Positions 3,613 through 34,567 of a stretch of 64,000 nucleotides of DNA are shown one piece after another. Every line of letters starts with the position of its first letter. Positions within the stretch are counted from its first letter, which is position 1. The stretch lies in IMG/VR virus record IMGVR_UViG_3300042197_004918, positions 109,818 to 173,817 of that record, one strand, 5' to 3'. The notes below the pieces were generated by a model. That model was not told where the DNA came from. It saw nothing but the letters and a program-made list of their open reading frames with translations, and did not search any database. Source of the DNA: a virus. The position numbers and the translations under genes were made by a program.

Positions 3613-3613
3613 A

Positions 3614-9785: not shown

Positions 9786-9837
9786 ATAAATAACGTCGGC
9801 AATCCGTGGTAGACTATATTTATAGGGAGATATAGAT

Positions 9838-12516
9838 ATGGCAAACGTAAAAATCTCCAATTTATCCGCCACCTGGACATCCTCAGCTGAGCTGACGGCT
9901 ATTAAGATGGACGTGACCGACACGGCTTCGTCAGGTTCAAGCAAACTCATGGACCTACAGTTAGGTTCGGTGAGCAAGTTTTCCGTCAGAAAAGACAGCG
10001 TAGTTACTGCTACATCATTTGTCGGTGGTCATACCGGGTCATTAGTAGGAACCTCCAGTTTTGCGGTAAGTTCAAGCACCGCTCAGTATAGTTCGACTGC
10101 GAGCTATGCTTCATCGGGCATCAGTGCGAGTTTTGCACAACAAAGCAATCAATCAGTGACGTCAAGCCACTCTGTAAGTGGTCTTAGCTCAAGTTATTCT
10201 TCATATAGTGGTCAGAGTAATACTTCGTTGAGTTCAAGTCAATCCAACTGGTCAAACACCGCAAGTTATGCTCTGAATGCGGGCAGCAGCGCAGGAACAA
10301 CTTTGAACAGCGGTAGCTCCTATAATATCACAGCATCTTGGTCAGTTTCATCGAGTTATGCGTTAAATTCTTCGGTAGGAACTACACTTGAAAGCGGAAG
10401 TTCTTACAATATAACCTCGTCGAGATCGATTTCTGCAAGCTTCGCTCACTCCGCTAGTTCGGCTATGACAGCAAGTTTTGCTTTAAGTGCAATTGCATCT
10501 CTTTCTTCGGGGAGTTCTTACAATATAACTGCCAGCCGTGCGGTCACTGCGAGTTATGTTCTGTCTTCCAGTTATGCTATCACAGCAAGCTTCGCTGAAC
10601 GGTATGCACCATACTGGCCTTCAAATGTAGAAATTTCTGGTGCCGGCCTAACTCCATCACTTAACAATGTGGTGAATTATGTGGCAACAAGTGGGTCATT
10701 TAGTTTATTCGCGAGTGCTCTAGGGAACACCCCTCAGTATTTTAAATGGTATATCAACTCCTCTTCATTATTACAACAGGGAACAGCGAGTGCATACAAT
10801 GTCACTTCTTCTATGAAGAATCCCAACAGCGGCATTTATACGTGCCAGGTGACCAACAGTTATGGCTCAGCGACTTCACAAAACTTTCAAGTTCAAGTCC
10901 TCGATCCTGTGGAGTTAGTGTCAGAAACTGCTCCAACTCCAACTCCCTCGGTCAACTCAATGGTCTATTTCATCGTGAGTGCGACTGGAGACCTTATCCG
11001 TTACAGGTGGAAGAAACGTGGAACAACGCCGGCTTTAGACACCTATGTTGTAGACGGTGTGCCTAGTATTCTTAATGAGGGTTATGCATCTTCAACGTTA
11101 ACCATCCAAGCCATAAGTCCAGAATCCGAGGGGTCTTATTTCTGTGAAATATCAAACAGCGTCAGTAACACATCTTCCTCAAATATGTTGATTTATGTTA
11201 CAGCACCTACAATCGTGACACAACCGGAAGATTTGGATACATTTGGAATGGCCACGGTATTGGCAACCGGCTCGGCCATCAGTTATTCGTGGCAATATAA
11301 TGGCATTGATATAGTCGAACAGACCGCAGCGACTTTGAATTTATCCACTGCTGTCAACGCTAATTATTTTACTCAGCCGATGATGGATCAATTATACTCC
11401 TTACGGTGTAAGGTCTATAACGGAGTCGGATACAACCTTAGCGATTCTATTCAAGTCAAACCGTTTAAGAAGGCCGGTGTCGCACTATCAGGTCACGCTG
11501 GGTCTGCCACGAGAACCGATCACTTTGTCGTCGCAATAGATGCTGCCTCTCAAATCATAGCCCCAGTGGGAACAACGTATGCAGTCGTTAAAAACAACGT
11601 TAACGTGGGTTCCGATGTCACTGCTTTGGGAGAGTCTACGCCAAAACTTACTCTCCATAACGTCCAATCGTCGGACGCGGGAACATATGCTGTAAGTGCC
11701 AGTTTCAATGGACTTAGTGTTACAAGTGACGCGATATCTCTGACCATTGCCGAGAATGCTAGTTATCATAACGCGTTTCCTTTGATCAGGTATGTTTTTG
11801 ACGATGAAACTCATACATTAGTCGCGGACTATGGAATGTCGCTTGGAACCACATATAACGGCCCCAACGGCACACCTCCAGGAACTTATTACATAGGTCG
11901 CGCCATCCGCCAGTCTCAGAACTTCACTGCATACGACCAGGCCGATTTGAATGGAAGTGTTTCATGTCCCGATCACGCGCCGTTTCCGACCACGTTGGGT
12001 TTTCCAACTTCCACGGTCACAATTACTGGCCGAAACATATCCGGCTCGTCTTCCTCGGGTTCTACAAGCATATTTTACCAATACGCTTACTCATACACGT
12101 TCGCCTCTTGCCCAACCAACTCTGTTAGCACTCCTAATCCGTGGCCGTGCGTCCACCCTGACACGTTGGCAGACACCTGCTCGGGTGGACAAACAGCCAC
12201 GTCGGCTGCCAATCTAATGACCGTCACCGTAATGAGTTTTGGTAATCTTGGAATTACCGTCCATCCGACTGGTAGCCAGTCAAAAGCCACCGGAAGCGCC
12301 GTGGTGCTTAGAACCGTCGGAACTGCCGGTGGCGCAGACCTACACTACAGATGGTATAGGAACGGTGTAAGAATCCCTGACTCTGATTCAAGCCTCTATT
12401 CTATATCCAGCGTTGCACTGAGCGACTCGGGCTCTTATTATTGTATTGTCGGTGCTAAATCCACACTGTCTTATAGAACGATGCAGTCGTCTGCATCTAT
12501 ACTTAACGTGGTGTAA
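9838..12516 (+). CDS. Ig-like-domain virion surface protein (fibre or decoration)
   Basis: Ser/Ala-rich SASYA and SGSSYNITAS repeats, then several Ig-like domains (Y.W....SG.Y.C). Confidence 0.8.
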   Translation: MANVKISNLSATWTSSAELTAIKMDVTDTASSGSSKLMDLQLGSVSKFSVRKDSVVTATSFVGGHTGSLVGTSSFAVSSSTAQYSSTASYASSGISASFAQQSNQSVTSSHSVSGLSSSYSSYSGQSNTSLSSSQSNWSNTASYALNAGSSAGTTLNSGSSYNITASWSVSSSYALNSSVGTTLESGSSYNITSSRSISASFAHSASSAMTASFALSAIASLSSGSSYNITASRAVTASYVLSSSYAITASFAERYAPYWPSNVEISGAGLTPSLNNVVNYVATSGSFSLFASALGNTPQYFKWYINSSSLLQQGTASAYNVTSSMKNPNSGIYTCQVTNSYGSATSQNFQVQVLDPVELVSETAPTPTPSVNSMVYFIVSATGDLIRYRWKKRGTTPALDTYVVDGVPSILNEGYASSTLTIQAISPESEGSYFCEISNSVSNTSSSNMLIYVTAPTIVTQPEDLDTFGMATVLATGSAISYSWQYNGIDIVEQTAATLNLSTAVNANYFTQPMMDQLYSLRCKVYNGVGYNLSDSIQVKPFKKAGVALSGHAGSATRTDHFVVAIDAASQIIAPVGTTYAVVKNNVNVGSDVTALGESTPKLTLHNVQSSDAGTYAVSASFNGLSVTSDAISLTIAENASYHNAFPLIRYVFDDETHTLVADYGMSLGTTYNGPNGTPPGTYYIGRAIRQSQNFTAYDQADLNGSVSCPDHAPFPTTLGFPTSTVTITGRNISGSSSSGSTSIFYQYAYSYTFASCPTNSVSTPNPWPCVHPDTLADTCSGGQTATSAANLMTVTVMSFGNLGITVHPTGSQSKATGSAVVLRTVGTAGGADLHYRWYRNGVRIPDSDSSLYSISSVALSDSGSYYCIVGAKSTLSYRTMQSSASILNVV

Positions 12517-14900: not shown

Positions 14901-14974
14901 GCGGGTATGATGTAATGGTAGCCTATAACTTTGCCAAAGTTGATGCGAGGGTTCGATTCCCTTTACCCGCTCCA
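14901..14974 (+). tRNA. tRNA-Gly(GCC)
   Basis: Cloverleaf, loop TT-GCC-AA, U73, CCA encoded. Confidence 0.93.
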
Positions 14975-15070
14975 GTAAATTGTTGTGTAAGTGGATTTAA
15001 CCACCTTGACAACGGATATAAACCCCTTAACTGGGTTTTCCAATGTAGTCACAACGATTTATCAATTAAT

Positions 15071-15144
15071 GCGGAATTGTTGTAATGGTAGCGATTCTGA
15101 TTTACACTCAGACAGAGGGGGTTCAATTCCCTCATTCCGTACCA
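15071..15144 (+). tRNA. tRNA-Val(TAC)
   Basis: TCTGA-TTTACAC-TCAGA, A73, CCA. Confidence 0.9.
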
Positions 15145-15235
15145 ATTAATTTGTTAACAAAGAAAGCCGAAACCCTTCTGGTATGGGAGCGTTTTTATCG
15201 GGGGTAAAAGTCCCAACTATCACCGCATTTTCAAT

Positions 15236-15312
15236 GGCCCCGTCGTCTAAGGTGGGTAGGACTTTTGATTCTCAATCAAAGAAACTCGGTTCGACCCCGA
15301 GCGGGGCTACCA
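15236..15312 (+). tRNA. tRNA-Glu(CTC)
   Basis: TTTGA-TTCTCAA-TCAAA, CCA. Confidence 0.9.
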
Positions 15313-15477
15313 AATTTAAGGCAAAGCATCCTTTAATCCCAAACCGCACGTAAAGCGGGGATGGAAGCTTGACAGCTGGAGAGAAAGCACCAATTTTAAT
15401 GGTCGGCGTATGACACCTCTACAACGGGTTGCTCTGTTGAACAGTGAATAATTACGAGGATCCCCGGCCGCCAACTT

Positions 15478-15559
15478 AAATCACGGAAGTTAGGGTTCGA
15501 GGTCCTTGGGTCTTCTTGTAGGGAGGACACTTAATGTAAGTGGAAGCATACCGTGATTT
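15478..15559 (+). ncRNA. circularly permuted tRNA-like RNA (YrlA/Y-RNA-like layout)
   Basis: Terminal stem AAATCACGG/CCGTGATTT encloses a T-arm (GTTCGA), then a closed acceptor-like hairpin, then a D-arm (TAATGTAAGTGGAAGCATA). Confidence 0.5.
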
Positions 15560-15569
15560 GAAGTTTTTT

Positions 15570-15644
15570 GGGGGATTAGTGATAATGGTAGCACGACTGA
15601 TTTGCACTCAGTAGGTACTGGTTCGATTCCTGTATCCTCCACCA
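15570..15644 (+). tRNA. tRNA-Ala(TGC)
   Basis: G3:U70, ACTGA-TTTGCAC-TCAGT, CCA. Confidence 0.93.
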
Positions 15645-15645
15645 A

Positions 15646-15718
15646 CCGTTCGTAGGATAATGGCTATTCCGCCTGCTTTGGGAGCAGGATATTGTGAGTT
15701 CGAGTCTCACCGAGCGGA
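15646..15718 (+). tRNA. tRNA-Pro(TGG), no encoded CCA
   Basis: CCTGC-TTTGGGA-GCAGG, C1:G72, A73. Confidence 0.9.
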
Positions 15719-15787
15719 CAGCGTAGCGCCGGGTTGGGTATTGCTCCAACGGTAATGTGTTAGTGTTAACGCCCGGCGGTCACGTAT

Positions 15788-15861
15788 GCTCAAGTGATGT
15801 AATTGGAAAACATCTTTGTCTCAAAAACAGAGTTTTGTGGGTTCAACTCCCACCTTGAGCA
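15788..15861 (+). tRNA. tRNA-Leu(CAA), short variable loop
   Basis: TTTGT-CTCAAAA-ACAGA. Confidence 0.85.
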
Positions 15862-15863
15862 CC

Positions 15864-15943
15864 GTTCAGTTGATGAAAATCGTAGGGAAACATCTGGGAC
15901 GAAAATCTCGGTTTTGTAGGTTCGACTCCTACACTGAACACCA
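15864..15943 (+). tRNA. atypical tRNA with 6-nt anticodon loop (CGAAAA; Phe-like?)
   Basis: Perfect acceptor GTTCAGT/ACTGAAC, T-arm and CCA; loop lacks U33. Confidence 0.6.
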
Positions 15944-15947
15944 TAAT

Positions 15948-16022
15948 GGTCACGTAGCCCAATTGGCAGGAGGCGCAACGTCGAGAACGTTGACAGTGTG
16001 AGTTCAAATCTCACCGTGACTA
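15948..16022 (+). tRNA. tRNA-Leu(GAG), C33, short variable loop
   Basis: CAACG-TCGAGAA-CGTTG. Confidence 0.8.
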
Positions 16023-16031
16023 CCGTATTTT

Positions 16032-16119
16032 GGGCAAGTATCCAAATGGTGAAGGAGACTGACTGTAAATCAGTTGCCATGTGCTAAACTTACAGGTTCG
16101 AGTCCTGTCTTGCCCACCA
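16032..16119 (+). tRNA. tRNA-Tyr(GTA)
   Basis: ACTGA-CTGTAAA-TCAGT, long variable region, CCA. Confidence 0.92.
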
Positions 16120-16324
16120 AACATCAAGCTCCCTTGAATTACACAACCTATGCATGGGTCAACGAAATGGTGTATTAACCGATTGGCTCGGTCGGCCTCT
16201 GATGTCTTTGATTTAAACAGACTAGCGTTTTCGGCTAGCCTGGCAGAGTGAGATAGATACCGTAGTAGGGCACGAGGCGGAGAACATCAGTGAAATCCTC
16301 ACAAAACCATTTCGTAAGTATAAT

Positions 16325-16402
16325 GGCTACGTAGCCCAATTGGAAGGAGGCGTCTCATTTAAAACGAGAACAGTGCAGGTTCGAGTCCTGTCGTAGCTAC
16401 CA
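16325..16402 (+). tRNA. tRNA-Leu(TAA), short variable loop
   Basis: TCTCA-TTTAAAA-CGAGA, CCA. Confidence 0.85.
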
Positions 16403-16606
16403 TTTTTGATTTCGGGTGTATATGACACAACGAATTACGTATATTTGTGTCAAAATGTGGAATGGATTGGGCACGAAACTCCGAATTGCACTGACCAATC
16501 ACACTCGAATTTTGAATCTATGTTGGGGCACGGTAGGCTCCGATGTAAGTAGAGGTCGCGGGTGGTGCCCTCGGATGGGTTCAAGTCCCAGACCACCAAA
16601 TTTCAT

Positions 16607-16681
16607 AGGGATATAGCTCAATGGCGGAGCAACACAATGACATTGTGAAGGTTGCTGGTTCAAGTCCAGTTATCCCTACCA
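16607..16681 (+). tRNA. tRNA-Val(GAC)
   Basis: Loop AT-GAC-AT, A73, CCA. Confidence 0.88.
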
Positions 16682-16933
16682 GATTGAAGAAAATTGTGCT
16701 AGATTTAAGCGGTAAACGTAACCGGCTCTCCTAAAGGAAGGGAAATTTTAAATCACTTCAACATTTTGTAGATGAGCGGTGGAGAAGTGCCACTAGAACA
16801 TGAGTAGTGCGTAAATAGGTGTGTGATGTCCCGACAGTGGAATAAACGGAAACGGCCGTAACAACGGTGTAGCCGCCACGACGTAGAAAATACGCCATGA
16901 AGATTAAATTCTTTCCATCTACAATCCCTTTAT

Positions 16934-17010
16934 GGTCACGTAGCCCAACGGCAGGAGGCGGGAGTCTTAGAAGCTCTACAGTGGGGGTTCAAATCCCTCC
17001 GTGACCACCA
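16934..17010 (+). tRNA. tRNA-Leu(TAG), short variable loop
   Basis: GGAGT-CTTAGAA-GCTCT, CCA. Confidence 0.88.
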
Positions 17011-17431
17011 TTTTGTTTTTTCTTCTCCAGTTTGGTGTTATGGAATGGCAATTAGGACATAGAAGTTTTAAGTTTTGGTTTTGATTATTTTTCTTGTTTC
17101 CATCCACATGATGAACCTCAAGCGTTATTGGTTCTCCCAACCAATCCGCAGTCGAGCATCGTTCGCATTTTAATCCTCTCTCTTTAATGAGACAGTTTCT
17201 ACGAGCGGTTGCGGAAGAATAATCTTCTAAAGATTTCAAAGATTTACCCTTATTCCACAGTTGATGTGAAAAATGACTTATATCAAGATTCAATCGTTCA
17301 ATATGAAGTTTAACGGACCCCTGAGTCCCGCCGGCTTGAACTAATCCAAGATTTTTCAAAACTTGACTATAAGCACGACTTTTGGAAACAGCAACTTTTA
17401 ATTCTTCGTCTGAGTATGTTCTTTTTTTCAT
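16976..17431 (-). CDS. HNH homing endonuclease, ends antisense inside tRNA-Leu(TAG)
   Basis: CxxC..LEVHHVDGN..NN...NL.LLCPNCH; start reassigned to MKKRTY. Confidence 0.9.
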   Translation of the reverse strand: MKKRTYSDEELKVAVSKSRAYSQVLKNLGLVQAGGTQGSVKLHIERLNLDISHFSHQLWNKGKSLKSLEDYSSATARRNCLIKERGLKCERCSTADWLGEPITLEVHHVDGNKKNNQNQNLKLLCPNCHSITPNWRRKNKMVVTEGFEPPL

Positions 17432-17487
17432 ATCAATAAATATGAAACGGTAGACGAATAACACAATATTTATGTGTCAACCATTTT

Positions 17488-17731
17488 GAAAACGTGAGCG
17501 TGATAAAACGCAATGGGAACTAGACCACAACGAACCGGGAAGAAATGAAAGGTCGATAAACTATAGTTCTCATGTCGATTGAGGCGGTGCGATAATCCGA
17601 TGGCGAGCGGACGCTCGTTGTGATTGGAAACAATCATACTATGGGGAACTAAGCGGTGATATATCACAAGGCACCCATAGCGCAGGGCCAGTCTTAGACA
17701 CATACGGGTCCGAACCCCGTCGTTTTCACCA
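17488..17731 (+). ncRNA. 244-nt tRNA-ended structured RNA of unknown class
   Basis: Acceptor GAAAACG/CGTTTTC-A-CCA, D-like arm, T-arm ACGGG-TCCGAAC-CCCGT, ~170 nt internal helices. Confidence 0.65.
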
Positions 17732-17733
17732 TT

Positions 17734-17966
17734 TTGAAGTAGTAGGCTTAGAAGCAGCCATCTTTAATCAGCGAATCGAAACGCTGGCGACGACGCCTCC
17801 GTGCAACACCGACATTACGATTGGATGTTGTGAACGAGGTGATACATAAGAAGATATAGAGAGATAATAGTCTTGTGTATTGCCGTCCAGTATCTCCGCA
17901 GAAAGTAAACGGATACTCCGTAACTGGTAAGGTCCAATTATTCCTTGGCGTAAAAGCAGACTTCAA
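17734..17966 (+). ncRNA. 23S rRNA GTPase-centre (H43-H44) mimic RNA, copy 1
   Basis: GTAGGCTTAGAAGCAGCCATCTTTAA ... GCGTAAAAGC closed by TTGAAGT/ACTTCAA. Confidence 0.75.
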
Positions 17967-17969
17967 TAT

Positions 17970-18044
17970 CCATCCGTCGCCTAACTTGGTATGGCATCTC
18001 ATTTGGGGTGAGAAATAATCTCGGTTCAAATCCGGGCGGGTGGA
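17970..18044 (+). tRNA. tRNA-Pro(TGG), copy 2
   Basis: TCTCA-TTTGGGG-TGAGA, C1:G72, A73. Confidence 0.88.
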
Positions 18045-18047
18045 CCT

Positions 18048-18315
18048 GATTAGAAGAAAGTAGGCTTAGAAGCAGCCATCTTTTAAAAAGTGACGAGTGG
18101 AAAAAGTATCTGTTGCAACAGAGAAATAAGCGTAACGGGTTTGTCAAGTCCCCGACGTATAACCACAGGGAATATAAATCCAAAAAACGATGTAAATAGT
18201 TACGGTGGGACAAGCAAGGTTGACCAACTAATGTAGAATAACGAGTGTCTAAGGGGTTCTACAAATGACTATTTTACCCTTTAACAGTCTTTGGCGTCAT
18301 AGCATACTTCTAATC
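18048..18315 (+). ncRNA. 23S rRNA GTPase-centre (H43-H44) mimic RNA, copy 2
   Basis: GTAGGCTTAGAAGCAGCCATCTTTTAAA ... GCGTCATAGC closed by GATTAGAAG/CTTCTAATC. Confidence 0.75.
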
Positions 18316-18320
18316 TTTAT

Positions 18321-18391
18321 AGCGTGGCTACTGGGTAGTGCGGAAACTCCAAATCTCTGCTTCGTCGGTTCGATTCCGACTCACGCTGCCA
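18321..18391 (+). tRNA. tRNA-Trp(CCA) with reduced D-arm
   Basis: Loop CT-CCA-AA, G73, CCA; D-arm only CTAC-TGG-GTAG. Confidence 0.75.
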
Positions 18392-18422
18392 GTGGTGTCA
18401 GTAACACAAAACTATTGATTAT

Positions 18423-18538
18423 CGCAGTTAGGGCAAAGATACGAGCCGCCACGGTATGGACTGTGGAGGGGTGTGTGAGACGAGATTTGACGCTGGAATC
18501 TATCACTGTTAACAGGTTAAAGTCCTGTAGCTGCGACC
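18423..18538 (+). ncRNA. Pro-like tRNA derivative with ~45-nt variable region
   Basis: CGCAGTT/AGCTGCG-A-CC, stem CCACGG-TATGGA-CTGTGG, T-arm ACAGG-TTAAAGT-CCTGT. Confidence 0.5.
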
Positions 18539-18546
18539 TTAATTTT

Positions 18547-18619
18547 CGGGATGTAATGTCAGTGGCAGACGGCCGAGCCTGGAACTCGGAGGTCGCAGGT
18601 TCGAGTCCTGTCATCCCGA
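18547..18619 (+). tRNA. tRNA-Pro(TGG), copy 3, C33/A37
   Basis: CCGAG-CCTGGAA-CTCGG, C1:G72, A73. Confidence 0.8.
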
Positions 18620-18686
18620 CCGTGTGAGTGTGCATACAGAACTAATCGGGACAAATGCCGAAAAGTAATCCGAGTTCACATATAAT

Positions 18687-18758
18687 GGTCTGTTCGTCTA
18701 TCGGCTAGGACGATGCCCTTTCAAGGCGTAAAGATGGGTTCGATTCCCATACGGACTA
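18687..18758 (+). tRNA. tRNA-Glu(TTC), no encoded CCA
   Basis: ATGCC-CTTTCAA-GGCGT. Confidence 0.9.
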
Positions 18759-18760
18759 CA

Positions 18761-19009
18761 GTTTAACACGGTCGATCTATAGCGGGTGTAGAAATACATC
18801 TGAGGAAGTTCGCGCCACTAAAGCAGTTGATTGGGAGAATCGGCCGAGAGCAGAAATGCCGGTCGCAAAGACAGCCGATTCGTTAATACCACACAATAAG
18901 TGCAAGCCAAACAGAGCCGAGGGTAGTGCTTCCCGTTATGGTAGGCTCGGGTTGGTGCATAGTCAAATTATAGAATAAAACAGAAGCGCGGCTACATGAT
19001 ATGTTAAAC
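18761..19009 (+). ncRNA. rnpB: RNase P RNA, minimal form
   Basis: P4 halves GAGGAAGTTCGCGC (18802) and ACAGAAGCGCGGCTA (~18980) pair with the bulged U; P1 GTTTAACA/TGTTAAAC; P2 TCTATAG/TTATAGA; P3; P15/16 region. Confidence 0.88.
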
Positions 19010-19053
19010 CATTTTTGATTGACTTGTCGTTTGAGATGTCCTATCATTTTATT

Positions 19054-19293
19054 ATGAATACTTCATCTATTGCAGAAACTTGTTCTTTTTGTAAAAACCC
19101 GGCTGCAGGATACAATATCATGGGAGATTTTTGCAGTGGACATAAAGAACTGTTTGTCAGAGATTGGACAAAACAGACTTTGTATGACCTATTACTTGAA
19201 TACCCGAATGAACGGGTGGATGGTTTGGTGAAGTTGTTCAATGGATATAAAAACTTCACAACACGCTGGCCCGATGGTAATATCGTTGGATGA
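19054..19293 (+). CDS. hypothetical protein
   Basis: ATG 6 nt after TTGACT-N17-TATCAT. Confidence 0.6.
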   Translation: MNTSSIAETCSFCKNPAAGYNIMGDFCSGHKELFVRDWTKQTLYDLLLEYPNERVDGLVKLFNGYKNFTTRWPDGNIVG

Positions 19294-19802
19294 AGAAATA
19301 TCAAATGTATCTCAACGTAGGGGATTGGTCTGGTGATGGTCACGAAAAACACGACCGAGTTTTGGTTGAATCCAACCTTCCGGTTGCCGACGTCCAACAG
19401 GCATACAAGGATTCTTGTAAGTTGACCGGAGTTCAACTCAACGGTAATGAAGATTATACCGGTATTAAACGCGATTGGATGGCCGCTAGAGAAGTCCAGC
19501 TTCTCACCGAGTATGAGGAATCAAAAATTACTCCAAAACAATTTGAAGTGTTACAAAAACACGGATTGAAGTCGAAAATGATAGCCAAGTGGAACGGAGA
19601 AGATGATGCCGAAGAAACTGCTGAAGGTGGATATTATATCTACGGTGTCGATGCGTATGTCAAATTTTGGATATGGTTCACATCACTCTCCAACAAAAAA
19701 CTAAAAATTACCGAAATTCCTGACGATGAAAACATCCCCAATATCAACGGATACTGGGATAAAAATCTCAACGCGGGATTTGGATATGGAATTTATTCTT
19801 AA
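19290..19802 (+). CDS. hypothetical phage protein (GDWSGDGH motif)
   Basis: 170 aa ORF, C-terminal FGYG. Confidence 0.75.
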   Translation: MKKYQMYLNVGDWSGDGHEKHDRVLVESNLPVADVQQAYKDSCKLTGVQLNGNEDYTGIKRDWMAAREVQLLTEYEESKITPKQFEVLQKHGLKSKMIAKWNGEDDAEETAEGGYYIYGVDAYVKFWIWFTSLSNKKLKITEIPDDENIPNINGYWDKNLNAGFGYGIYS

Positions 19803-19807
19803 CTAAT

Positions 19808-19884
19808 GGTCAAGTGATGTAATTGGAAAACATCGTTTACTCAAAATAAACGTTTTGTGGGTTCAACTCCCATCTTGACTACCA
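19808..19884 (+). tRNA. tRNA-Leu(CAA), copy 2, short variable loop
   Basis: GTTTA-CTCAAAA-TAAAC, CCA; near-duplicate of 15788. Confidence 0.87.
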
Positions 19885-20503
19885 ATTTCTTTGCTCGTCG
19901 GTAGTTTCGTCCGTTCTCAAGTCCGACCTTTTTAAGAGCTTGGTGGATATTTTCCGAAGATTTTAACGATTCAATCAACTCTTCATCAGAAACATTTCTT
20001 TTGATTTTATTTCTTCCACCATAAGTGGGTGTTATGGAATGACAGTTCGGACACAACAATCTTAGATTTTCACGAGTATTGTTTCTTCTGTCTCCGTTAA
20101 TATGGTCTAATTGAAGAGACAGTTTAACCCCATTCCAACTATCAATTCCACACAAACATTTGTCGGATTGTTCAGATGAAATCAAAGATTTGATAACGTT
20201 TTTACTTAAAAGTTCAAATGGAGTTTTGGAAATTCTATCGTCTAAAGATTTCCGAGAAGCTATAACCGCCTTAATTCTATCATCGTTTGTAAAAACTTTT
20301 CGTCTTGAGTCAAACCCCGAAACGAATCCTCTGCCGGGGGATGATTTACCTGTCAAGGTTTTAGACACCTTTTCGTTTATCTCCTTTCTCTTATTTTTGG
20401 TTGCAAACGACCTAGAACATTTAATAGAACAGAATCGTCCGCTTCCAATAATAATTGAAAAGTCGGAATTACAATTTTCACAAGATTTTATCACAGAGTT
20501 CAT
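19841..20503 (-). CDS. HNH homing endonuclease with N-terminal Zn finger, ends inside tRNA-Leu(CAA)
   Basis: CxxC..FCSIKC; LQLDHINGD..NN..NL.LLCPNCH; start reassigned to MNSVIK. Confidence 0.9.
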   Translation of the reverse strand: MNSVIKSCENCNSDFSIIIGSGRFCSIKCSRSFATKNKRKEINEKVSKTLTGKSSPGRGFVSGFDSRRKVFTNDDRIKAVIASRKSLDDRISKTPFELLSKNVIKSLISSEQSDKCLCGIDSWNGVKLSLQLDHINGDRRNNTRENLRLLCPNCHSITPTYGGRNKIKRNVSDEELIESLKSSENIHQALKKVGLENGRNYRRAKKLVVKMGVEPTKRLF

Positions 20504-20547
20504 ATAGACATAAATATATCTCTGTAGGTTCAAAAGCAAAAATATTT

Positions 20548-20623
20548 GCGGATGTAGCTCAACTGGCAGAGCGCTTGCCTTCCAAGCAGGCTGTTGTGGG
20601 TTCAACTCCCATCATCCGCTCCA
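20548..20623 (+). tRNA. tRNA-Gly(TCC)
   Basis: CTTGC-CTTCCAA-GCAGG, U73, CCA. Confidence 0.95.
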
Positions 20624-20790
20624 TGAATACTAATCAGAAACGAATTAAACACGAGGAGGATTACATAAACTTCCTCGAAAAACGTCTCGGTAGTATGAAT
20701 TTCAAAAGGAATTCTTCTCCGGAAGAAATTGAAAAAACTGAAGCAAAACTCAAGAAAGCAAAGTTGGTTTTGAGAGTTTTGAAGAAGTAA
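20623..20790 (+). CDS. small basic protein; ATG shares the A of the tRNA CCA
   Basis: MNTNQKRIKHEEDY...LRVLKK fills the spacer between two tRNAs. Confidence 0.55.
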   Translation: MNTNQKRIKHEEDYINFLEKRLGSMNFKRNSSPEEIEKTEAKLKKAKLVLRVLKK

Positions 20791-20793
20791 ATT

Positions 20794-20881
20794 GGACGGT
20801 TATCCCGTAGGGGTAGCGGTACGCGCTGTAAACGCGTTGCCTTAACAGGCTCGGGTGGTTCAACTCCATCACCGTCCACCA
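20794..20881 (+). tRNA. tRNA-Tyr(GTA), copy 2
   Basis: ACGCG-CTGTAAA-CGCGT, long variable arm, CCA. Confidence 0.92.
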
Positions 20882-21049
20882 TGAAAAAAATAAATCGCCT
20901 AAACGAACCTAAGAAAGATAAAACAAAGGTGAGGGTTCCTCAATGGACTCTGGCACTGATGGTTGCTGGTGTGATAAGTAAGGATTCGGTCGTTGAGACA
21001 TTAAAACAATCAAAGTGAGACTTTATCTAAGTAGTGACTATTTATAGTT

Positions 21050-21619
21050 ATGAACAGATTCAAGTTTCTTTCGGTATTTCTTTTAACTTCGTTAATCCTC
21101 TTAACGTCGGTATTTTTTACTGGATGTGAGAACGGGTCCGCTCAAACATCGACAAAGTTACCGTCAGCTCCTTCAAAGGTTTATACAGCGGATGAGCTGC
21201 AAAATTTAATGTTTAAAAACGGTATAAACACCGGAACATTCTTACTTGCCGACAAAAACTACGTATTAACTACAAGGGAGTGGATTAGGTCTGACTTTTC
21301 CCGTGGTCTGACAGCATTTCAGTTTCAGATGGGGATAGACAAGTGGGTGGCTGAAACAAATGATTGTGATAAATTCGCCACTGCTGCGACATTTTATGCT
21401 AAGTGGCTGAGTCATTCATCCCCGAACAGAAATGTTAGAGCATCCCTCGCTTTTGGTGAACTGCACTATTCGAGGGAGAGTGACGGACGTGCCCACGCTA
21501 TAAATTTCTTCGTAGTTAATGAAGGGGAACTCAAACTCGTGTTCTATGAACCACAAAATCATAAAATCGTGAATTTGACCAAGGGTGAACAATTTAGTGT
21601 ATTCTTCTGGAGACTATGA
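21050..21619 (+). CDS. putative lipoprotein with Cys-protease/transglutaminase-like motifs
   Basis: Signal peptide + FTGC lipobox; NDCDKFA..HAIN..YEPQ. Confidence 0.65.
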   Translation: MNRFKFLSVFLLTSLILLTSVFFTGCENGSAQTSTKLPSAPSKVYTADELQNLMFKNGINTGTFLLADKNYVLTTREWIRSDFSRGLTAFQFQMGIDKWVAETNDCDKFATAATFYAKWLSHSSPNRNVRASLAFGELHYSRESDGRAHAINFFVVNEGELKLVFYEPQNHKIVNLTKGEQFSVFFWRL

Positions 21620-21761
21620 AAAAACTCATTTTAATAATCGTATTTTCGTCAGTATTGATGGCCTGTAAGACGGCCGACGTGTTTCCACCAAGGAACATCC
21701 CAAAGCCCCCTGTAGAGTTCTCTAGTATTGACAAATAATCAATCTACTGTATAGTGTTCTT

Positions 21762-22124
21762 ATGGATGAGAACGAAGTATTGAACGAGATTTTTGGTCAG
21801 ACGCCCTTGTGGAAGGGTAAATATAAAATCAAGTGGTGTGAACTGTGTCGGACTTCCATCATCGTGTGTGAAGAGTGTAAGAACAGTTCTTGTAACGGCG
21901 GCGGATGTAAGGAGTGTGACGAAGCATTTTCGTCCTTCGCTAAGGCCAAGACAACCATTGAAGAATATCTCACCGAAGAAGAAATATACGCATACCACAA
22001 AGCGATGTATTTGAAGGAGTTTATACAAACGTCACTCGGTAAGGGTGAAAATGAAATTGACTTTGAACGGATGAATAGAGACGGTGAACTTTCCGAAGTA
22101 ACGCGAAAGATGTTTTTGAAGTAA
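21762..22124 (+). CDS. Cys-rich hypothetical protein
   Basis: Multiple CxxC; ATG 6 nt after TTGACA-N16-TATAGT. Confidence 0.65.
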   Translation: MDENEVLNEIFGQTPLWKGKYKIKWCELCRTSIIVCEECKNSSCNGGGCKECDEAFSSFAKAKTTIEEYLTEEEIYAYHKAMYLKEFIQTSLGKGENEIDFERMNRDGELSEVTRKMFLK

Positions 22125-22130
22125 TTTAAT

Positions 22131-22203
22131 GGGTCTATGGTGAAATTGGACATCATAGGAGTTTCCTAAACTTTTGTTTCCGGTTCGAGTCCGGATAGAC
22201 CTA
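22131..22203 (+). tRNA. tRNA-Arg(CCT)
   Basis: GGAGT-TTCCTAA-ACTTT. Confidence 0.87.
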
Positions 22204-22508
22204 CCGCGCGGGTTTCGGTTGGGTGCCCCAAAGGACGGGATTAACTCCGTCAGAGGCCCATGTGGTCGAGGGAGTTGATTGAAACCAACTCCAAACCGTT
22301 TTAATTTTATGAACATGGATCGTATGTTAGATGAAGGTGGTTACACCTTAGACGAAGAGTTATTTATAGCAAATCACTCTTCCATAGAAATATGCGAACT
22401 GTGTGGTGACTATTTTGCTATTCATCCCGACTACTGTTATGTCGGACGCAATAATTTCGTAGAATTGACCTTTGGAGGACGATTCTACTGTCAGAAGTGT
22501 AAGTAATT

Positions 22509-22599
22509 GGATGGTAAACCCGAAAGGTTTGGGAACTGCCTCGAAAACAGATTGCTGGGCTTAAAACCCAGTGGGCTTCGATTGCTCTGCCATCCGCCA
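22509..22599 (+). tRNA. tRNA-Ser(CGA), 8/4 fold
   Basis: 8-bp acceptor GGATGGTA/TGCCATCC, 4-bp T-stem GGGC/GCTC, long variable arm, G73, CCA. Confidence 0.82.
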
Positions 22600-22602
22600 G
22601 AT

Positions 22603-22869
22603 ATGGAAACAATAAGATTGTGTGCTCGAGTAGTGGACAACGGCGATAAATCCGTTAATTTAGTTGACTTGCTCGTTGGGTCAAAATTGACAAAGAGCAA
22701 ACGAGAGGCGAGAGATTTAATCTCTTCGGGTGGAGCTTACATAAACGGCGTCCGAACCACTGAAAATAGAGATATATCTACGGATGATTTGATTGGTGAT
22801 GAAATAGTTCTCCGTAAAGGTAAAAAAACACATTTTGTTCTAAAGTTCTTAAATATAAGAGGTAAGTAA
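22603..22869 (+). CDS. stand-alone S4-like RNA-binding domain (TyrRS C-terminal-like)
   Basis: L.DLLV...L..SKREAR.LI..GG.YING....LRKGKK. Confidence 0.8.
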   Translation: METIRLCARVVDNGDKSVNLVDLLVGSKLTKSKREARDLISSGGAYINGVRTTENRDISTDDLIGDEIVLRKGKKTHFVLKFLNIRGK

Positions 22870-22889
22870 AACCGATAGGTTTGGTCATT

Positions 22890-22977
22890 GGAATGCAAAA
22901 CCTCAAGGCGAGGTCGGTGATTGGAAATCACCTGGACGCCCTAAACCAGCGTTGAGATTCGAGTTCTCTACATTCCG
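22890..22977 (+). tRNA. tRNA-Ser(GGA), 8/4 fold, no encoded CCA
   Basis: GGTGA-TTGGAAA-TCACC; GGAATGCA/TACATTCC; T-stem GAGA/TCTC; G73. Confidence 0.8.
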
Positions 22978-23637
22978 CAGTATTATTTCCAGATATTTTT
23001 CTGAAGTTCTGTCGTTGAAGTGTTTTTGGTCAGAAATATCTATGACTACTAACTTGATGCTGTTTTCCAAACAAGATTTAACTTTCTTTTTATCATTCTT
23101 GACGGTGGAAACCAGTTTATCTTTTCCAAAAATCGGTTTATAATGAAAAATACCGTTCAATTCAAAAGCCAATCTCAAAGAGGGAATATAAATATCCAAC
23201 TCGGAGTTTATGTCTTTTCTCTGATTAAATCTAATCTCTAATGTTGGAAAAGTTTTTTTAAGTTTCTCTTCCAAATATTTTTCAAGTTTAGATCTCCTAC
23301 AACCACACGATTTTCTAACAAAATGTTCATTATTATACTTTGCTGCACAAGAATTTGAACAGAATTGATTTCCGGTTTTTGACCTCTTAATGAGAGAATT
23401 CTTTCTATAAAAAGAAAGGTCACACACTTTACACTTCACGATTTTTCCTTTATTTAGAGCAACATTTCTACAATCCGTTCCACAGTATTTTAAAATTTTC
23501 CTATATCCACATTTCTCCGACCATTTGATGTCGTTTTTCTTTCCGTAAAATTGGGCATGGCAATTTTCACATTCCAACTTTAATTTTTCCGTGGATTTGG
23601 CAGAAGAAAATTCCTCATCCGTGTAAAGCTTAATCAT
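22903..23637 (-). CDS. Zn-finger + Vsr/DUF559-like PD-(D/E)xK endonuclease, ends inside tRNA-Ser(GGA)
   Basis: CxxC repeats; ELDIYIP...AFELNG.FHY; start reassigned to MIKLY. Confidence 0.8.
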   Translation of the reverse strand: MIKLYTDEEFSSAKSTEKLKLECENCHAQFYGKKNDIKWSEKCGYRKILKYCGTDCRNVALNKGKIVKCKVCDLSFYRKNSLIKRSKTGNQFCSNSCAAKYNNEHFVRKSCGCRRSKLEKYLEEKLKKTFPTLEIRFNQRKDINSELDIYIPSLRLAFELNGIFHYKPIFGKDKLVSTVKNDKKKVKSCLENSIKLVVIDISDQKHFNDRTSEKYLEIILRNVENSNLNAGLGRPGDFQSPTSP

Positions 23638-23946
23638 GTTAATAAATATCAAGGAATTTTCCGAAAACACGGCTTACCGCCTGCTACTTCATTATGGAAA
23701 CCATGTAGTCGCCAGTCAAAGATGGGGTGTAATAACTATTCGTATTTCCACGTTTCTCATATAATGGAATGAAAGTGTTTCCGTCTTTATCAGTGTAACC
23801 TTTCCTTACAAGTCTGTAATATTCTTTATTGACTTGGACGTTGTATGGGTCTGAACATGAGACAAACAATAGGGTGGTGAGGACCAAAAAAATCTTTTTC
23901 ATCAAAAATAAATATCTCGTTATGATTCTAACACATATTTATAAAC

Positions 23947-24198
23947 GTGGAAGATAAAGACATCAAACAATTAGGTGTATATCTCGACTTGTGTGGAGAA
24001 CGTGAGTTTTTATTAAGTGCGGTCTGGTTATCTTTCAGATACAAGGAAATTCATCCAGAGTGGAACGTCAATCAGTGTTTTGAACAAGCAATTTGGGATG
24101 TTATGGTGAGTGAAGCCAAGCGTGAAACTAAACTCGATTTAAGGTCAACTGTGGAGAAGATAAACCAAATCCAAAGCTTGTGTTCCACCAAAAAGTAG
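23947..24198 (+). CDS. hypothetical protein
   Basis: GTG 4 nt after TATTTAT. Confidence 0.55.
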   Translation: MEDKDIKQLGVYLDLCGEREFLLSAVWLSFRYKEIHPEWNVNQCFEQAIWDVMVSEAKRETKLDLRSTVEKINQIQSLCSTKK

Positions 24199-24234
24199 GT
24201 TGACAAGTATTATAATTACACGTATGATCTCTAC

Positions 24235-24741
24235 GTGCAGACATTTCTACCATACTCGGATTTTTCAAAATCAGCAAATTGTTTAGATGACCGCCGGCTT
24301 GGAAAGCAGAGAGTAGAGGGTTATCAAATTCTAAAATCTCTAAGCATCGGCCCGTATCAACGTTTCCACAAAGATGCTTGGGTAGCTTGTGACGAGAGAA
24401 CGTATAATTCGTTAAAATCATTGAAAGTCAAGAAGTTGGTTAGAAAAACTCCTTGGTATAATCATCCAGCCACAAAAATGTGGGCGGGGTCTGAGGGTTC
24501 TCTAAAAGAATACACAGTTACCGTATGTTCAGTTTGGACCAGCCGTGGATTCAAGGATACGATTACCGATAAACTCAATAGTGTCCCGAATTCTTCTATA
24601 AAGAGTAAAACTCCAAGTTGGATTGGCGATGAGTCGTTCCACGCTGCCCATCGTTCTAATTTGTTAAGAAAAAACAAAGTATGGTATTCTAAGTTTAATT
24701 GGAAAGAATCGGACGATTTACCTTATGTCTGGCCAAAGTAA
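24235..24741 (+). CDS. pyrimidine-dimer DNA glycosylase family protein (DenV/MSMEG_6728-like)
   Basis: MQTFLPY..LD.RRLGKQRVE, HPA..MW, HRSNLLRK, PYVWP. Confidence 0.85.
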   Translation: MQTFLPYSDFSKSANCLDDRRLGKQRVEGYQILKSLSIGPYQRFHKDAWVACDERTYNSLKSLKVKKLVRKTPWYNHPATKMWAGSEGSLKEYTVTVCSVWTSRGFKDTITDKLNSVPNSSIKSKTPSWIGDESFHAAHRSNLLRKNKVWYSKFNWKESDDLPYVWPK

Positions 24742-24804
24742 GATTCTGAAAGAAAAGGCTAGACGAAACGGATTTCAGTGGTATAGTTATTTTGTAGTGA
24801 GAAT

Positions 24805-24884
24805 GGTTCCGTAGCCAAGATGAAATAAGGCGTCTGTTCCGCAAGGACAGAAAATCGGTGGTTTAATTCCATCCGGGACCTCCA
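24805..24884 (+). tRNA. Cys-like tRNA with 9-nt anticodon loop (TCC-GCA-AGG)
   Basis: Stem TCTGT/ACAGA, U73, CCA; T-loop TTTAATT. Confidence 0.6.
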
Positions 24885-24887
24885 GTC

Positions 24888-24962
24888 GGGCAGGTCGTCT
24901 AGTGCTTAGGATATTCCCCTTCGCGGGGAAAGACGAAGGTTCAAATCCTTCCCTGCCCACCA
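24888..24962 (+). tRNA. atypical tRNA, anticodon TCG (Arg) on a Glu-like body, C37
   Basis: TTCCC-CTTCGCG-GGGAA; perfect acceptor and T-arm; CCA. Confidence 0.6.
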
Positions 24963-24966
24963 GTAT

Positions 24967-25224
24967 ATGAAAACAAAACTGTAGAATTGTAAAGAAGTCG
25001 TGTTTCACTTCAACAAGGGTCACCTGGCCAATCCAGAGATTCCTATGTGGGTGTTAAAAACAAAAGGCGAAAGCTACTATGTGAATCACGTCACCGCGAG
25101 TTGTTCTTGGACAACCAAGGAAACTCCCGACAATCCTACAACCAAAGGTTCTTTGAAGTTTAAGAACGTGGATGTGGAAATCAGTGAAGATAGAGAAGCG
25201 ACAATTTTTGCGTCTGTAGTTTAA
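24967..25224 (+). CDS. hypothetical phage protein
   Basis: FHFNKGHL..PMWV.K.KG..YYVNHV..TKETPDN..TKGS; 3' end overlaps the suppressor tRNA. Confidence 0.65.
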
Positions 25225-25284
25225 TGGTCAGAACTGGCGCCTCTAAAACGCCGTGTGTGGGTTCGACTCCCATTGGACGCACCA
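25210..25284 (+). tRNA. amber suppressor tRNA (CTA)
   Basis: GGCGC-CTCTAAA-ACGCC puts CUA at 34-36; canonical D and T arms; A73, CCA. Confidence 0.78.
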
Positions 25285-25526
25285 TGTTTGAAAAAATTAA
25301 CGAACTGTTTAGTGCTTTGGAGAAAGAGTTCCCATATTCAACTATGGGAGTAGATTTTAAGGGACGCCATGCCATAACGAGGGAGAGAGATGGAGTATTA
25401 GTTGTCTCTGTTTGGTCCAAGGGTTCAGTCTATCCAATAGGCGTTGACCCTAAAGATTTTGAAGATATTAACAAGTTTGTGGCCGATTCGAGAGTGATAG
25501 TGGATGGATGGAAGAAATCTGGTTGA
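25284..25526 (+). CDS. hypothetical protein; ATG shares the A of the tRNA CCA
   Basis: MFEKINELFS... Confidence 0.6.
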   Translation: MFEKINELFSALEKEFPYSTMGVDFKGRHAITRERDGVLVVSVWSKGSVYPIGVDPKDFEDINKFVADSRVIVDGWKKSG

Positions 25527-25576
25527 CGGAATCGGAAAGTCTGATATAGTTATTTCAAGGTTAGTTGAGTGAACAC

Positions 25577-26538
25577 GAAAGACCTTAGATTAAAAACTCA
25601 ACTGTATGATTGATACACAAATTAATCCGTTTACTGGTGACGATAGTGCGGTAAGACCGATGTGGGGTTGATTTAATCCACGTAGTTTTGAGGTGACTTA
25701 TCATCCTCACGTTTTGTTGATTGTTCTTTGTAAGTAGAATTTGGGAGGCCTGACTCCCTTCAAGATAAACCGTCGTAAGACGGCTAAAGCAGAAACCCCC
25801 TAACGGGACTGCGCCACAGTAATGTGGACACTCAGGCAACTGACGAATCAGTGTCTTTCACTCAAAAGGTGGAAGTATGTCTGAAGCTGGATTGGTAAAT
25901 GGTGATTGAGGGTAACACTGTAAATCATCTACTAACGGTACCGCCGAGCACTACTAATTCCTAACGGAACAGCCAAGAATAAGATTCAAGTCAAACGTAT
26001 AGATACAAGTCCGCAAGCAAGTGTTTATATGTAGAATGATAGAGAGTGGCCCAGGGTAACCGAGGACATAATCTTGAAATTCGGTGAAGTATCCGCAAGA
26101 GAAACACAAATGGTGTGTGGTATATTGGTTCCCAAAAGGAATTGATGTCACAAGCAACGCACGTCATTGTTAGGTGCATATTATATCATTGTTAGATAAA
26201 CTATATACAAAAAAGCCAAGTCGTTGCTTGTGTTCGTCGAAAAGAACGTAACTCTGAGGCCGTAAGGTAACTCAGACAACGAAGCGCTCGCAAGGTGTTA
26301 GTTGTTGATCCGAGTTTGGACGTGGTCCGCAAGACCTAATTGCTCGCAAGGCAACCGTTTGAATAGAGGTTGATTAGATGGACATTAAAGATGAAAAGCC
26401 GCATCTCTAAAAAGGCCGTTCTGTCAAATACAGACATAAACCGTAAGGTTGTGGATGTGGATACGTTGGGAAAGCAGCCCGCAAGGTTGTAATAATCCAA
26501 TCAAAGGTTGACACGAAACACTGTAGTCTCAGGTTTCA
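25577..26538 (+). ncRNA. large ornate ncRNA, GOLLD-like
   Basis: ~960 nt without a credible ORF; own promoter (TTGACG-N16-TATAGT at 25523); terminal helix; about 10 GCAA/GTAA-capped hairpins; flanked by tRNAs. Confidence 0.62.
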
Positions 26539-26542
26539 TTTT

Positions 26543-26631
26543 GGATGGGTGGCGGAGCCCGGTTTATCGCGCTAGTCTTGAAAACTAGAGAGGCCTAAAA
26601 ACCTCCGTAGGTTCAAATCCTACCTCATCCG
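26543..26631 (+). tRNA. tRNA-Ser(TGA), no encoded CCA
   Basis: CTAGT-CTTGAAA-ACTAG, long variable arm, G73. Confidence 0.92.
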
Positions 26632-26636
26632 CAGTT

Positions 26637-26728
26637 GGAAGTTAGCCAAATATTGGTTTGTTGGAGCTGTTTGCTAAACAGTGCCGGTGTAAAAGCCGGT
26701 GAGGGTTCGATTCCCTTGACTTCCGCCA
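26637..26728 (+). tRNA. tRNA-Ser(GCT), 7/5 or 8/4 fold
   Basis: GCTGT-TTGCTAA-ACAGT, long variable arm, G73, CCA. Confidence 0.88.
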
Positions 26729-30123: not shown

Positions 30124-30428
30124 TTTATGAAAAGTGAATCCTCGTGGGAAGACCACAAGCCAGAAGGAAGAAATTTCAAAAACAAAGACGTAGATGTGCG
30201 TGGATATTCCCCTAAATACGACGCATACTATAATGTGAAGACGGGAGAATGGTTTGAAGAAAATTGTGGACACGAAGACTGTGAGTTTTGTAAAGATAGG
30301 CCGGAAAAACACATAAGGCCAAAGGCTTGACACTTTTGGACTTTTGTCCTATAGTTATTCTCAGACAGTAAATCCTGATTTTGATAAGGGTTTAGCAGTC
30401 AGAAAACATAACAGATTAAGATACGATT

Positions 30429-31400: not shown

Positions 31401-31484
31401 CTTTCGGTGATGGCGGTGATAACATAAATGTGACCTGATTTAGATGGGTCACGGAAACTAAAATAGAAAGATAAAGATAACTCT

Positions 31485-32918: not shown

Positions 32919-33196
32919 AACCAATTACTGCTGAAGAAGCGAGAAAGTTGTCTATGACTTCCAAAGAGTCTTTGGCTTCAAAGTTTATCATTGACATTTA
33001 CGCTTCAATTGCTTGTAAAGCTGAACTTGGTCATAATCAATTGTCGTATCCGATAAATAATACAAAAATCGACGAAGTTATCCTAAGTATAGTCATTTCA
33101 AAGTTAAAAGAACTTGGATATAAAGCAGAACACAGTTCTGGAAGTGATTGCCGTGACGGCGATTCTTGGAACAACCTTAACATCTCTTGGTGAATT

Positions 33197-34153: not shown

Positions 34154-34393
34154 AACCGATATACACTGATAGTATGTTACACTTTCACGGCCAATTCAAA
34201 GAATCCAGATTCGCGTGGGAACTCTGTATGTTCCATAAACTACGAGAATTTTCAGATGGATTGACTCTGGTGGATTTCGACGTTAATTACGATAAATACG
34301 TCGGCGACCACACGCCGAAATTTGAGGTTCTTCTCGTGTTGTTCAACTATGTGATTGTCGATTTCTCAATCTATAACATTTATCATGCAGACC

Positions 34394-34567
34394 ATGAGGC
34401 CTATCAGAGCAATCATCGACCGGGCGGTTTTTAATTCCGTCTCAGACGCAGTTAATGAATATGAGGCCGACGAAGACGATATATGGTTCACCTTTATGTC
34501 CATTGATGACATTTATGACGACGCTTTGTTGATTCCACACTTTTACGTGAAGGACTTAAATTCCTAA
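34394..34567 (+). CDS. small acidic protein, paralog A
   Basis: R.IID..VF..V..AVNEYE..E..WFTF shared with the next ORF. Confidence 0.6.
   Translation: MRPIRAIIDRAVFNSVSDAVNEYEADEDDIWFTFMSIDDIYDDALLIPHFYVKDLNS

Follow-up and report, generated by a model that had tools for sequence, protein, structure and literature searches.

A predicted miniature RNase P RNA gene within a phage tRNA array

RNase P RNA is a universal and essential cellular ribozyme that removes the 5' leader from tRNA precursors. In the bacterial enzyme, U(-1) of the precursor is read by an adenosine of J5/15, and the 3' CCA is read by the GGU of L15. The archaeal enzyme has four or five proteins, none of which would be expected in a bacterial host. 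Two kinds of RNA show how far the molecule can be reduced. The type T RNAs of the Thermoproteaceae (RF02357) are natural RNAs of about 200 nt whose C-domain is conventional but whose S-domain is all but missing, while in the engineered C-domain-only or mini-M1 RNAs the S-domain has been deleted and the core is still catalytic, acting through the acceptor stem, the leader, the CCA and protein. We searched the literature, with coverage of part of the journals, and found no account of an RNase P RNA encoded by a phage or other virus.

Here we describe a 249-nt element at positions 18761-19009 (plus strand) of the window, by which we mean the whole 64,000-nt stretch of viral DNA analysed. The window is DNA of a large freshwater phage, with genes for ThyA, DenV, a DNA ligase, a CCA-adding enzyme and NAD salvage. 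Sequence comparison shows the element to be homologous to RNase P RNA and to form a phage-encoded family of its own. It is nearest to bacterial type A in architecture, to the archaeal model in Rfam score and to type T in spirit. The features to which we refer below are as follows.

14901-26728, plus strand: tRNA array of 24 genes, the presumed substrates; U at -1 in 21 of 24, encoded 3' CCA in 16 of 24.
18687-18759, plus strand: tRNA-Glu(UUC), called by ARAGORN and Rfam; it ends 1-2 nt before the start of P1, and such flush packing recurs in relatives.
18761-19009, plus strand: the whole putative miniature RNase P RNA gene, with a full-length sub-threshold match to RF00373; the unit used for covariance model R1.
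18761-18768, plus strand: P1 5' strand (GUUUAACA), partner 19002-19009; compensatory changes in 8 of 8 pairs, 92% paired in 22 sequences.
18776-18782, plus strand: P2 5' strand (UCUAUAG), partner 18968-18974; 6 of 7 pairs covary, 94.6% paired.
18784-18801, plus strand: P3 hairpin (GGGUGUA-GAAA-UACAUCU); all 6 modelled pairs covary, 97.3% paired.
18802-18816, plus strand: CR-I and P4 5' strand (GAGGAAGUUCGCGCC), bulged U at 18809/18810; GAGGAA and the bulged U invariant in 22 of 22.
18816-18819, plus strand: P5 5' strand (CACU), partner 18899-18902 (AGUG); 98.8% paired, 3 of 4 pairs covary.
18821-18825, plus strand: 5' strand of the P6 pseudoknot (AAGCA, in J5/7), partner UGCUU at 18927-18931 in the P17 loop; found in 18 of 21 sequences.
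18826-18897, plus strand: S-domain stub; helices 8-11 covary and are 91-100% paired.
18902-18905, plus strand: J5/15 GCAA, invariant in 21 of 21 aligned sequences.
18906-18956, plus strand: P15 (GCCAA/UUGGU), L15, P16 (GAGCC/GGCUC) and P17 (GGG/CCC); compensatory changes in P15, P16 and P17.
18957-18967, plus strand: J15/2 (GCAUAGUCAAAU region); YUAGACAAAU in relatives.
18980-18995, plus strand: CR-V, comprising J2/4 ACAGAA, the P4 3' strand GCGCGGCU and the next A; ACAG and the post-P4 A invariant in 22 of 22.
19019-19047, plus strand: promoter-like site TTGACT-17-TATCAT, identified by its strong consensus match only, at the start of the next unit just after the element.
43630-45063, plus strand: CCA-adding tRNA nucleotidyltransferase with an HD domain (Pfam PolyA_pol, PolyA_pol_RNAbd, tRNA_NucTran2_2, HD).

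The catalytic domain appears complete and type-A-like, comprising P1-P6, P15-P17 with an L15 GGU, CR-I, the J5/15 adenosines, J15/2 and CR-V. P4 consists of AGU[U]UCGCGC (18807-18815) paired with GCGCGGCU (18986-18993), the U being bulged. With E. coli M1 RNA (rnpB; type A, RF00010) the element shares P1-P5, P6 between J5/7 and the P17 loop, the series P15-L15(GGU)-P16-P17, the J5/15 adenosines, J15/2 and CR-V, and the motifs of the two RNAs align. The E. coli counterparts are GAGGAAAGUCC at 61 (CR-I), GCAAGG at 246 (A248/A249, to which A18904/A18905 are equivalent in the motif alignment), GGGUAGGCU at 291 (G292/G293), UAGAUGAAU at 327 (J15/2) and ACAGAACCCGGCUUA at 347 (CR-V). The core strands of RNase P RNA, CR-I GAGGAA(A)GUC, the J5/15 AA, J2/4 ACAGAA and GGCU(U)A, are all present; CR-I is one A shorter, reading GAGGAAGUUC in the phage against GAGGAAAGUCC in E. 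coli. The original prediction, of a minimal RNase P RNA of about 250 nt in the tRNA array with an intact P4 carrying a bulged U, with P1-P3 and with a P15/16 region bearing GGGT, thus agrees with what we found, at the same coordinates.

The two RNAs differ mainly by what has been lost. The phage element has 249 nt where E. coli has 377, and it is without P18, P13/P14 and the P7-P9 cruciform, as well as any recognisable CR-II/CR-III; it is also encoded by a phage without rnpA. The predicted lack of room for P18 was borne out, there being no P18 between P15 and P2 in the window element, and a P18-like hairpin is kept in some relatives (L026, L002, LR756501.1 and DLP6). Type T resembles the phage form in the near loss of the S-domain, but it is a cellular archaeal gene, whereas the phage form retains a conserved stub together with P15-P17 and P6. 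Likewise, the mini-M1 RNAs are laboratory constructs, whereas the phage form is natural, virus-encoded and under selection.

Taken by itself, the sequence of the element was not sufficient to decide its identity. A permissive Rfam scan of 18600-19200 gave a full-length match (1-288 of 288) to RNaseP_arch (RF00373) at 18764-19006, with 34 bits and E 4e-8, which is sub-threshold given the gathering cut-off of 84 bits for this family. Over the whole 173,817-bp record the match has E 3e-9 and is the only one of its kind. Both the CR-I-like GAGGAAGUUCGCGCC and the CR-V-like ACAGAAGCGCGGCUAC were aligned in it. At gathering thresholds, Rfam placed no RNase P family on the window element, and none of the curated thresholds of the RNase P clan (CL00002) was reached by it. 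The bacterial type A and type B models (RF00010 and RF00011) had no matches at the locus, RF00010 not even at E<=10, and the truncated type T model (RF02357) scored 15.8 bits against a cut-off of 60. Thermodynamic folding was uninformative, the minimum free energy being no better than that of shuffled sequences (z -1.4 sense, -1.7 antisense).

Homologues were sought in public collections with patterns that required only those letters of both P4 strands that never vary and allowed any letter at the three variable positions. Matches came from contigs of viruses and metagenomes and from three archaeal MAGs. On inspection they fell into three sets: chance matches within coding sequence, cellular RNase P RNAs from archaea of the Ca. 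Micrarchaeia type, and a phage group whose elements are almost always flush against tRNA genes, typically 0-16 nt from the next one. A covariance model, R1, was built from the window element, L031 (96% identical), L026 and L043, with a structure derived by hand. With it, another 21 copies came to light, which lie on 20 other phage or metagenome sequences and score 24-294 bits; all of the phage-group elements were recovered, while the archaeal RNAs scored 12-31 bits. The pattern matches L006/11/13, L007, L010, L014, L019 and L038 were discarded as chance occurrences in coding DNA, being rejected by R1 at E<=0.01; on L038 only an unrelated place was scored (7.5 bits, E 0.79). One 5.5-kb metagenome contig, L043, carries two diverged copies, at 1742-1980 (plus) and 3504-3745 (minus), with R1 scores of 142 and 205 bits, which could reflect a duplication or an assembly artefact.

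Scanning of whole records with the model added three copies, in a 98%-complete 373-kb phage, in the published 735-kb phage LR756501.1 and in the cultured Stenotrophomonas maltophilia phage DLP6. The LR756501.1 copy (181309-181541, minus strand) is unannotated and free-standing, with no tRNA within 1.5 kb and a clear intrinsic terminator (GGGGUA...UACCCCUUUUUU) after it; a terminator of its own and the absence of a tRNA array indicate that some phages transcribe the gene independently. The DLP6 copy (KU682439.2:105774-106018; 80.8 bits, E 5e-26) is likewise unannotated and lies between a hypothetical CDS and tRNA-Arg. The DLP6 genome paper mentions neither RNase P nor a ribozyme. The Rfam family matched by the relatives is RF02357 or RF00373, and for L001 and L003 the best match is RF02357, at 30.9 bits. 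The large phages with copies are unrelated and come from freshwater and soil metagenomes; a soil isolate has a copy too, and the locus or its close relatives were seen in freshwater, river and drinking-water metagenomes of at least four other studies.

Other searches added nothing to this set. Distant-mode blastn of the element and two relatives against 50,697 phage records returned no match, which we attribute to the divergence of the family, since the LR756501.1 and DLP6 copies were found by the covariance model only. A pattern independent of CR-I (TAGACAAAT...ACAGAAG...GGCTA) yielded no additional viral contigs. Lak-A2 and Tunturi_5, which have related CCA-adding enzymes, gave no match to the model.

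In the alignment of 22 sequences, standard pairs occupy 93.5% of cells, against 32-40% when the partners are slid by 1-3 columns; changes on both sides of a pair, of the compensatory kind, were seen in 53 of 70 pairs, and none of 500 shuffles matched the observed value on any measure. The nested helices P1-P2-P3 and P5 around the core are 92-99% paired, with compensatory changes in nearly every pair, and P15, P16 and P17 are 92%, 85% and 93% paired. An alignment made with a covariance model is biased toward the helices that were modelled. P4 and P6 lie outside the model and are exempt from this bias, and we therefore place most weight on these two helices. P4, which is pseudoknotted with respect to P2, is 99.4% paired across the 22 sequences, with four covarying pairs and an invariant bulged U; its versions include CGCGC/GCGCG, CCGAC/GUUGG, CAGCC/GGCUG and CGCGA/UCGCG. 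The P6 pseudoknot was not part of the original prediction. Of 21 sequences, 18 have it as a helix of five or more Watson-Crick pairs, spelled in about 11 different ways, and such a helix is found with 82% of cognate and 13% of mismatched partners (Fisher, combined p ~8e-7).

The closest relative gives the same picture over a shorter distance. Between the window element and L031 there are 10 substitutions: three fall in loops and seven in helices, where every one preserves pairing, including three full compensatory doubles in the arm of the S-domain stub, and no change breaks a pair. The single-stranded core is invariant or nearly so, namely GAGGAA, the GCAA of J5/15, most of the L15 GGGU, the ACAG of J2/4 and the A after P4. 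Retention within the L15 GGGU (18949-18952) is 19 of 22 for G189, 20 of 22 for G190, 13 of 22 for G191 and 18 of 22 for U192. Because of the covariation among the 22 homologues, the behaviour of P4 and P6, to which nothing had been fitted, and the pair-preserving substitutions relative to L031, we do not regard the sub-threshold Rfam match as a chance resemblance, and the evidence argues that positions 18761-19009 hold a real, miniaturised RNase P RNA gene whose fold is kept by selection.

The S-domain is much reduced, as had been predicted from an estimate of only about 80 nt for it: about 79 nt (18820-18898) separate the P5 strands, and the distance from P6 to the P5 3' strand is 72 nt. It does not follow that no structure is left. 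The stub consists of an interrupted helix (GUUGAUUGG/CCACACAAU), a junction whose two strands read GAGA and CGUUAAUA, and an arm (GAAUCGGC/GCCGAUUC) that branches and bears the hairpins GCA-GAAA-UGC and GUC-GCAAA-GAC. Among the sequences that have the junction, the arm can be as small as 3 bp or as large as a branched 45 nt, and the junction letters (GGGAGA ... CGUUAAUACCAC) are conserved wherever the stub is present, in a subfamily of 13-14 of the 22 sequences. This conservation suggests that the stub is a structured module under selection and more than a gap, so that the reduction, but not the absence of structure, stands. In its order of helix, strand, variable hairpin, strand and helix, the stub has the topology of P10/11-J11/12-P12-J12/13, the site of the tRNA elbow-reading module in cellular RNase P RNAs, and its 5' strand is too short for a canonical T-loop. 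A low-confidence Infernal alignment suggests P7-P9 for the same stub, where topology suggests P10/11-P12. P13/P14, a P7-P9 cruciform and a recognisable CR-II/CR-III T-loop module were not found in the window element, and with the elbow module unrecognisable, the efficiency of the RNA on its own could be low.

The archaeal family is the best-scoring one, and archaeal RNase P RNAs have the absence of P13, P14 and P18 in common with the element. The GAGGAAGUUC form of CR-I is also common to the element and the RNAs of Ca. Micrarchaeia, but the latter keep the S-domain strands CAGAAACG and GAUGAAACGG, are without the CGGGUU of L15 and have no tRNA neighbours. We set aside an origin from an archaeal virus, since the archaeal RNAs lack that L15 sequence, lie away from tRNAs and are weak with the phage model. 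The scans also turned up short RNase P RNAs on DPANN-type archaeal contigs (L047, L048 and L049, from MAGs of Ca. Micrarchaeia or an uncultured archaeon, and L024, L039, L042, L045 and L046). Their span from CR-I to CR-V is about 165-200 nt, with the GAGGAAGUUC CR-I and no L15 GGU loop, and they are presumably the cellular RNase P RNAs of those archaea.

The element sits among genes for its presumed substrates. In the array, 8 of the 24 tRNA genes are without an encoded CCA, and the CCA-adding enzyme, whose closest relative is in LR756501.1 (51% identity), would be a second tRNA-maturation function of the phage. A full-length GOLLD RNA (26108-26535; 211 bits, cut-off 150) lies in the same array, 8 nt before a tRNA-Ser (26543-26632), so that with the RNase P RNA the phage has two large structured RNAs among its tRNAs. 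A tRNA with a CUA anticodon (amber suppressor, 'Pyl' according to ARAGORN) is found at 25210-25284. It had hinted at genome-wide recoding of TAG, of which we saw no sign, the standard-code ORFs being long and dense. Long antisense ORFs overlap tRNA genes at 16976-17464 and 19841-20605, both on the minus strand, and the array also contains small ORFs to which no function was assigned. Elsewhere in the window, an NAD+ salvage cluster (30420-35872) comprises an NMNAT/NUDIX fusion, NAMPT and a ribose-phosphate pyrophosphokinase (PRPP synthetase), and an 896-aa protein (9826-12516) with several immunoglobulin-like domains (Ig_2, Ig_3, I-set) is possibly a decoration or adhesion protein.

It had further been proposed that a reduced S-domain would suit non-canonical tRNA-like RNAs in this array. 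The array does have oddities: a 71-nt tRNA-Trp, four tRNAs that fall under the Rfam threshold, and five tRNAs with Leu anticodons (15788-15863, 15948-16024, 16325-16402, 16934-17010 and 19808-19884; CAA, GAG, UAA, UAG and CAA, respectively) that are 76-78 nt long, are without the long variable arm usual in bacterial tRNA-Leu, and have normal-looking T- and D-loops. However, the tRNAs of the array keep normal T-loops and the GG of the D-loop, which speaks against the proposal. With elbows that are normal even in the four sub-threshold tRNAs and the short Leu-anticodon tRNAs, there is no call for elbow-independent recognition.

Two lines of evidence bear on the limits of the gene and its expression. 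No promoter-like site was seen directly upstream of the element; this, the promoter-like site downstream and the tight packing against tRNAs lead us to infer co-transcription followed by processing. In contigs of relatives from two RNA libraries, similarity to the window begins at 18760 and ends near 19015, limits that would support the boundaries of the element, although such contigs cannot prove transcription. In RNA-labelled runs 19052-19700 is uncovered; the relatives there have other flanks and are represented by contigs only, so that this has no bearing on the limits of transcription.

Building on the homology, the fold and its selection, the phage location and the recurrence in other phages, we suggest that 18761-19009 encodes a phage-specific, miniaturised catalytic RNA of RNase P that matures phage pre-tRNAs together with host RnpA, and we hold this reading to be probable. 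The RNA would be made, probably, by co-transcription with the upstream tRNAs and be freed when the tRNA ends are processed; many relatives would owe the 3' end of the RNA to RNase P cutting at the next tRNA. The predicted ribozyme would act on the 24 phage pre-tRNAs, cutting off their 5' leaders, with recognition mainly through C-domain contacts, a J5/15 adenosine with U(-1) and the L15 GGU with the encoded 3' CCA, and the frequencies of U at -1 and of encoded CCA in the array fit recognition of this kind. Host RnpA would assist the phage RNA, a partner suggested by the lack of an rnpA in the phage. The prediction that the window has no rnpA extends further than was claimed: PF00825 is absent from the whole 174-kb record, which is about 49% complete, and from two large relatives, the 98%-complete 373-kb phage and the 735-kb LR756501.1. 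The phage may thereby gain a tRNA 5'-maturation capacity of its own during infection.

The same absence of rnpA leaves room for other readings, as it implies a function that involves the host protein or none at all. The RNA might be a decoy or hijacker that retains the surfaces for binding protein and substrate but serves mainly to capture host RNase P protein or pre-tRNAs without itself being the catalyst, so that host tRNA maturation is starved or redirected to phage transcripts. The S-domain is largely lost, as such a role would allow, but the nucleotides for catalysis and docking (the P4 bulged U, CR-I, ACAGAA, the J5/15 AA and most of the L15 GGU), needless in a pure decoy, are near-invariant, and the covariation of P4 and P6 preserves the exact geometry of the core; we consider this reading improbable. 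Slightly less improbable, though still unlikely, is a functional ribozyme that dispenses with host RnpA, acting as RNA alone in vivo or with an unrecognised phage protein as cofactor. The incompleteness of the record, the many ORFs without a family assignment (most of them) and the small unassigned ORFs inside the tRNA array give such a cofactor somewhere to hide. However, bacterial RNase P RNAs require protein in vivo, truncated C-domain constructs being even more dependent on it, and no match to the RnpA family was seen in the 373-kb or the 735-kb relative.

Decay of a cellular rnpB that was once captured, or a likeness due to chance, in either case without a function today, might be read into the sub-threshold Rfam score, the large deletions relative to cellular RNase P RNAs and the non-significant folding energy. 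We find it very hard to reconcile with compensatory changes over 22 diverged sequences, with the invariant core nucleotides, with the lack of any pair-breaking change relative to L031, or with the presence of the element in unrelated large phages of freshwater and soil and in a soil isolate, and we give it the smallest chance of all. A working, miniaturised RNase P RNA that borrows host RnpA remains our preferred reading.

We also put forward a broader proposal, though tentatively and thinking it somewhat more apt to fail than to hold: large phages of several lineages may have miniature RNase P ribozymes of their own, a virus-specific class that uses C-domain contacts alone (U-1 and CCA), borrows host RnpA and matures the tRNA array independently of host rnpB. 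The copy in DLP6, a cultured phage, makes the function directly testable. If the proposal is true, the class would be the first virus-encoded ribozyme belonging to the machinery that matures the translation apparatus, a possible safeguard against host shut-off or defences directed at the tRNA supply, and a natural experiment on the minimum size of an RNase P RNA in a bacterial cell.

Current Rfam thresholds miss this class of phage RNase P RNA, and the family would account for stretches of about 200-300 nt left without annotation in phage tRNA arrays. As naturally reduced RNase P RNAs suited to a bacterial setting, its members would bear on how far the S-domain is needed and on what RnpA makes up for. 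For the phages themselves, an RNase P RNA family at two-thirds of the bacterial size would add 5' processing to the tRNAs and CCA-adding enzyme already among the translation functions of large phages.
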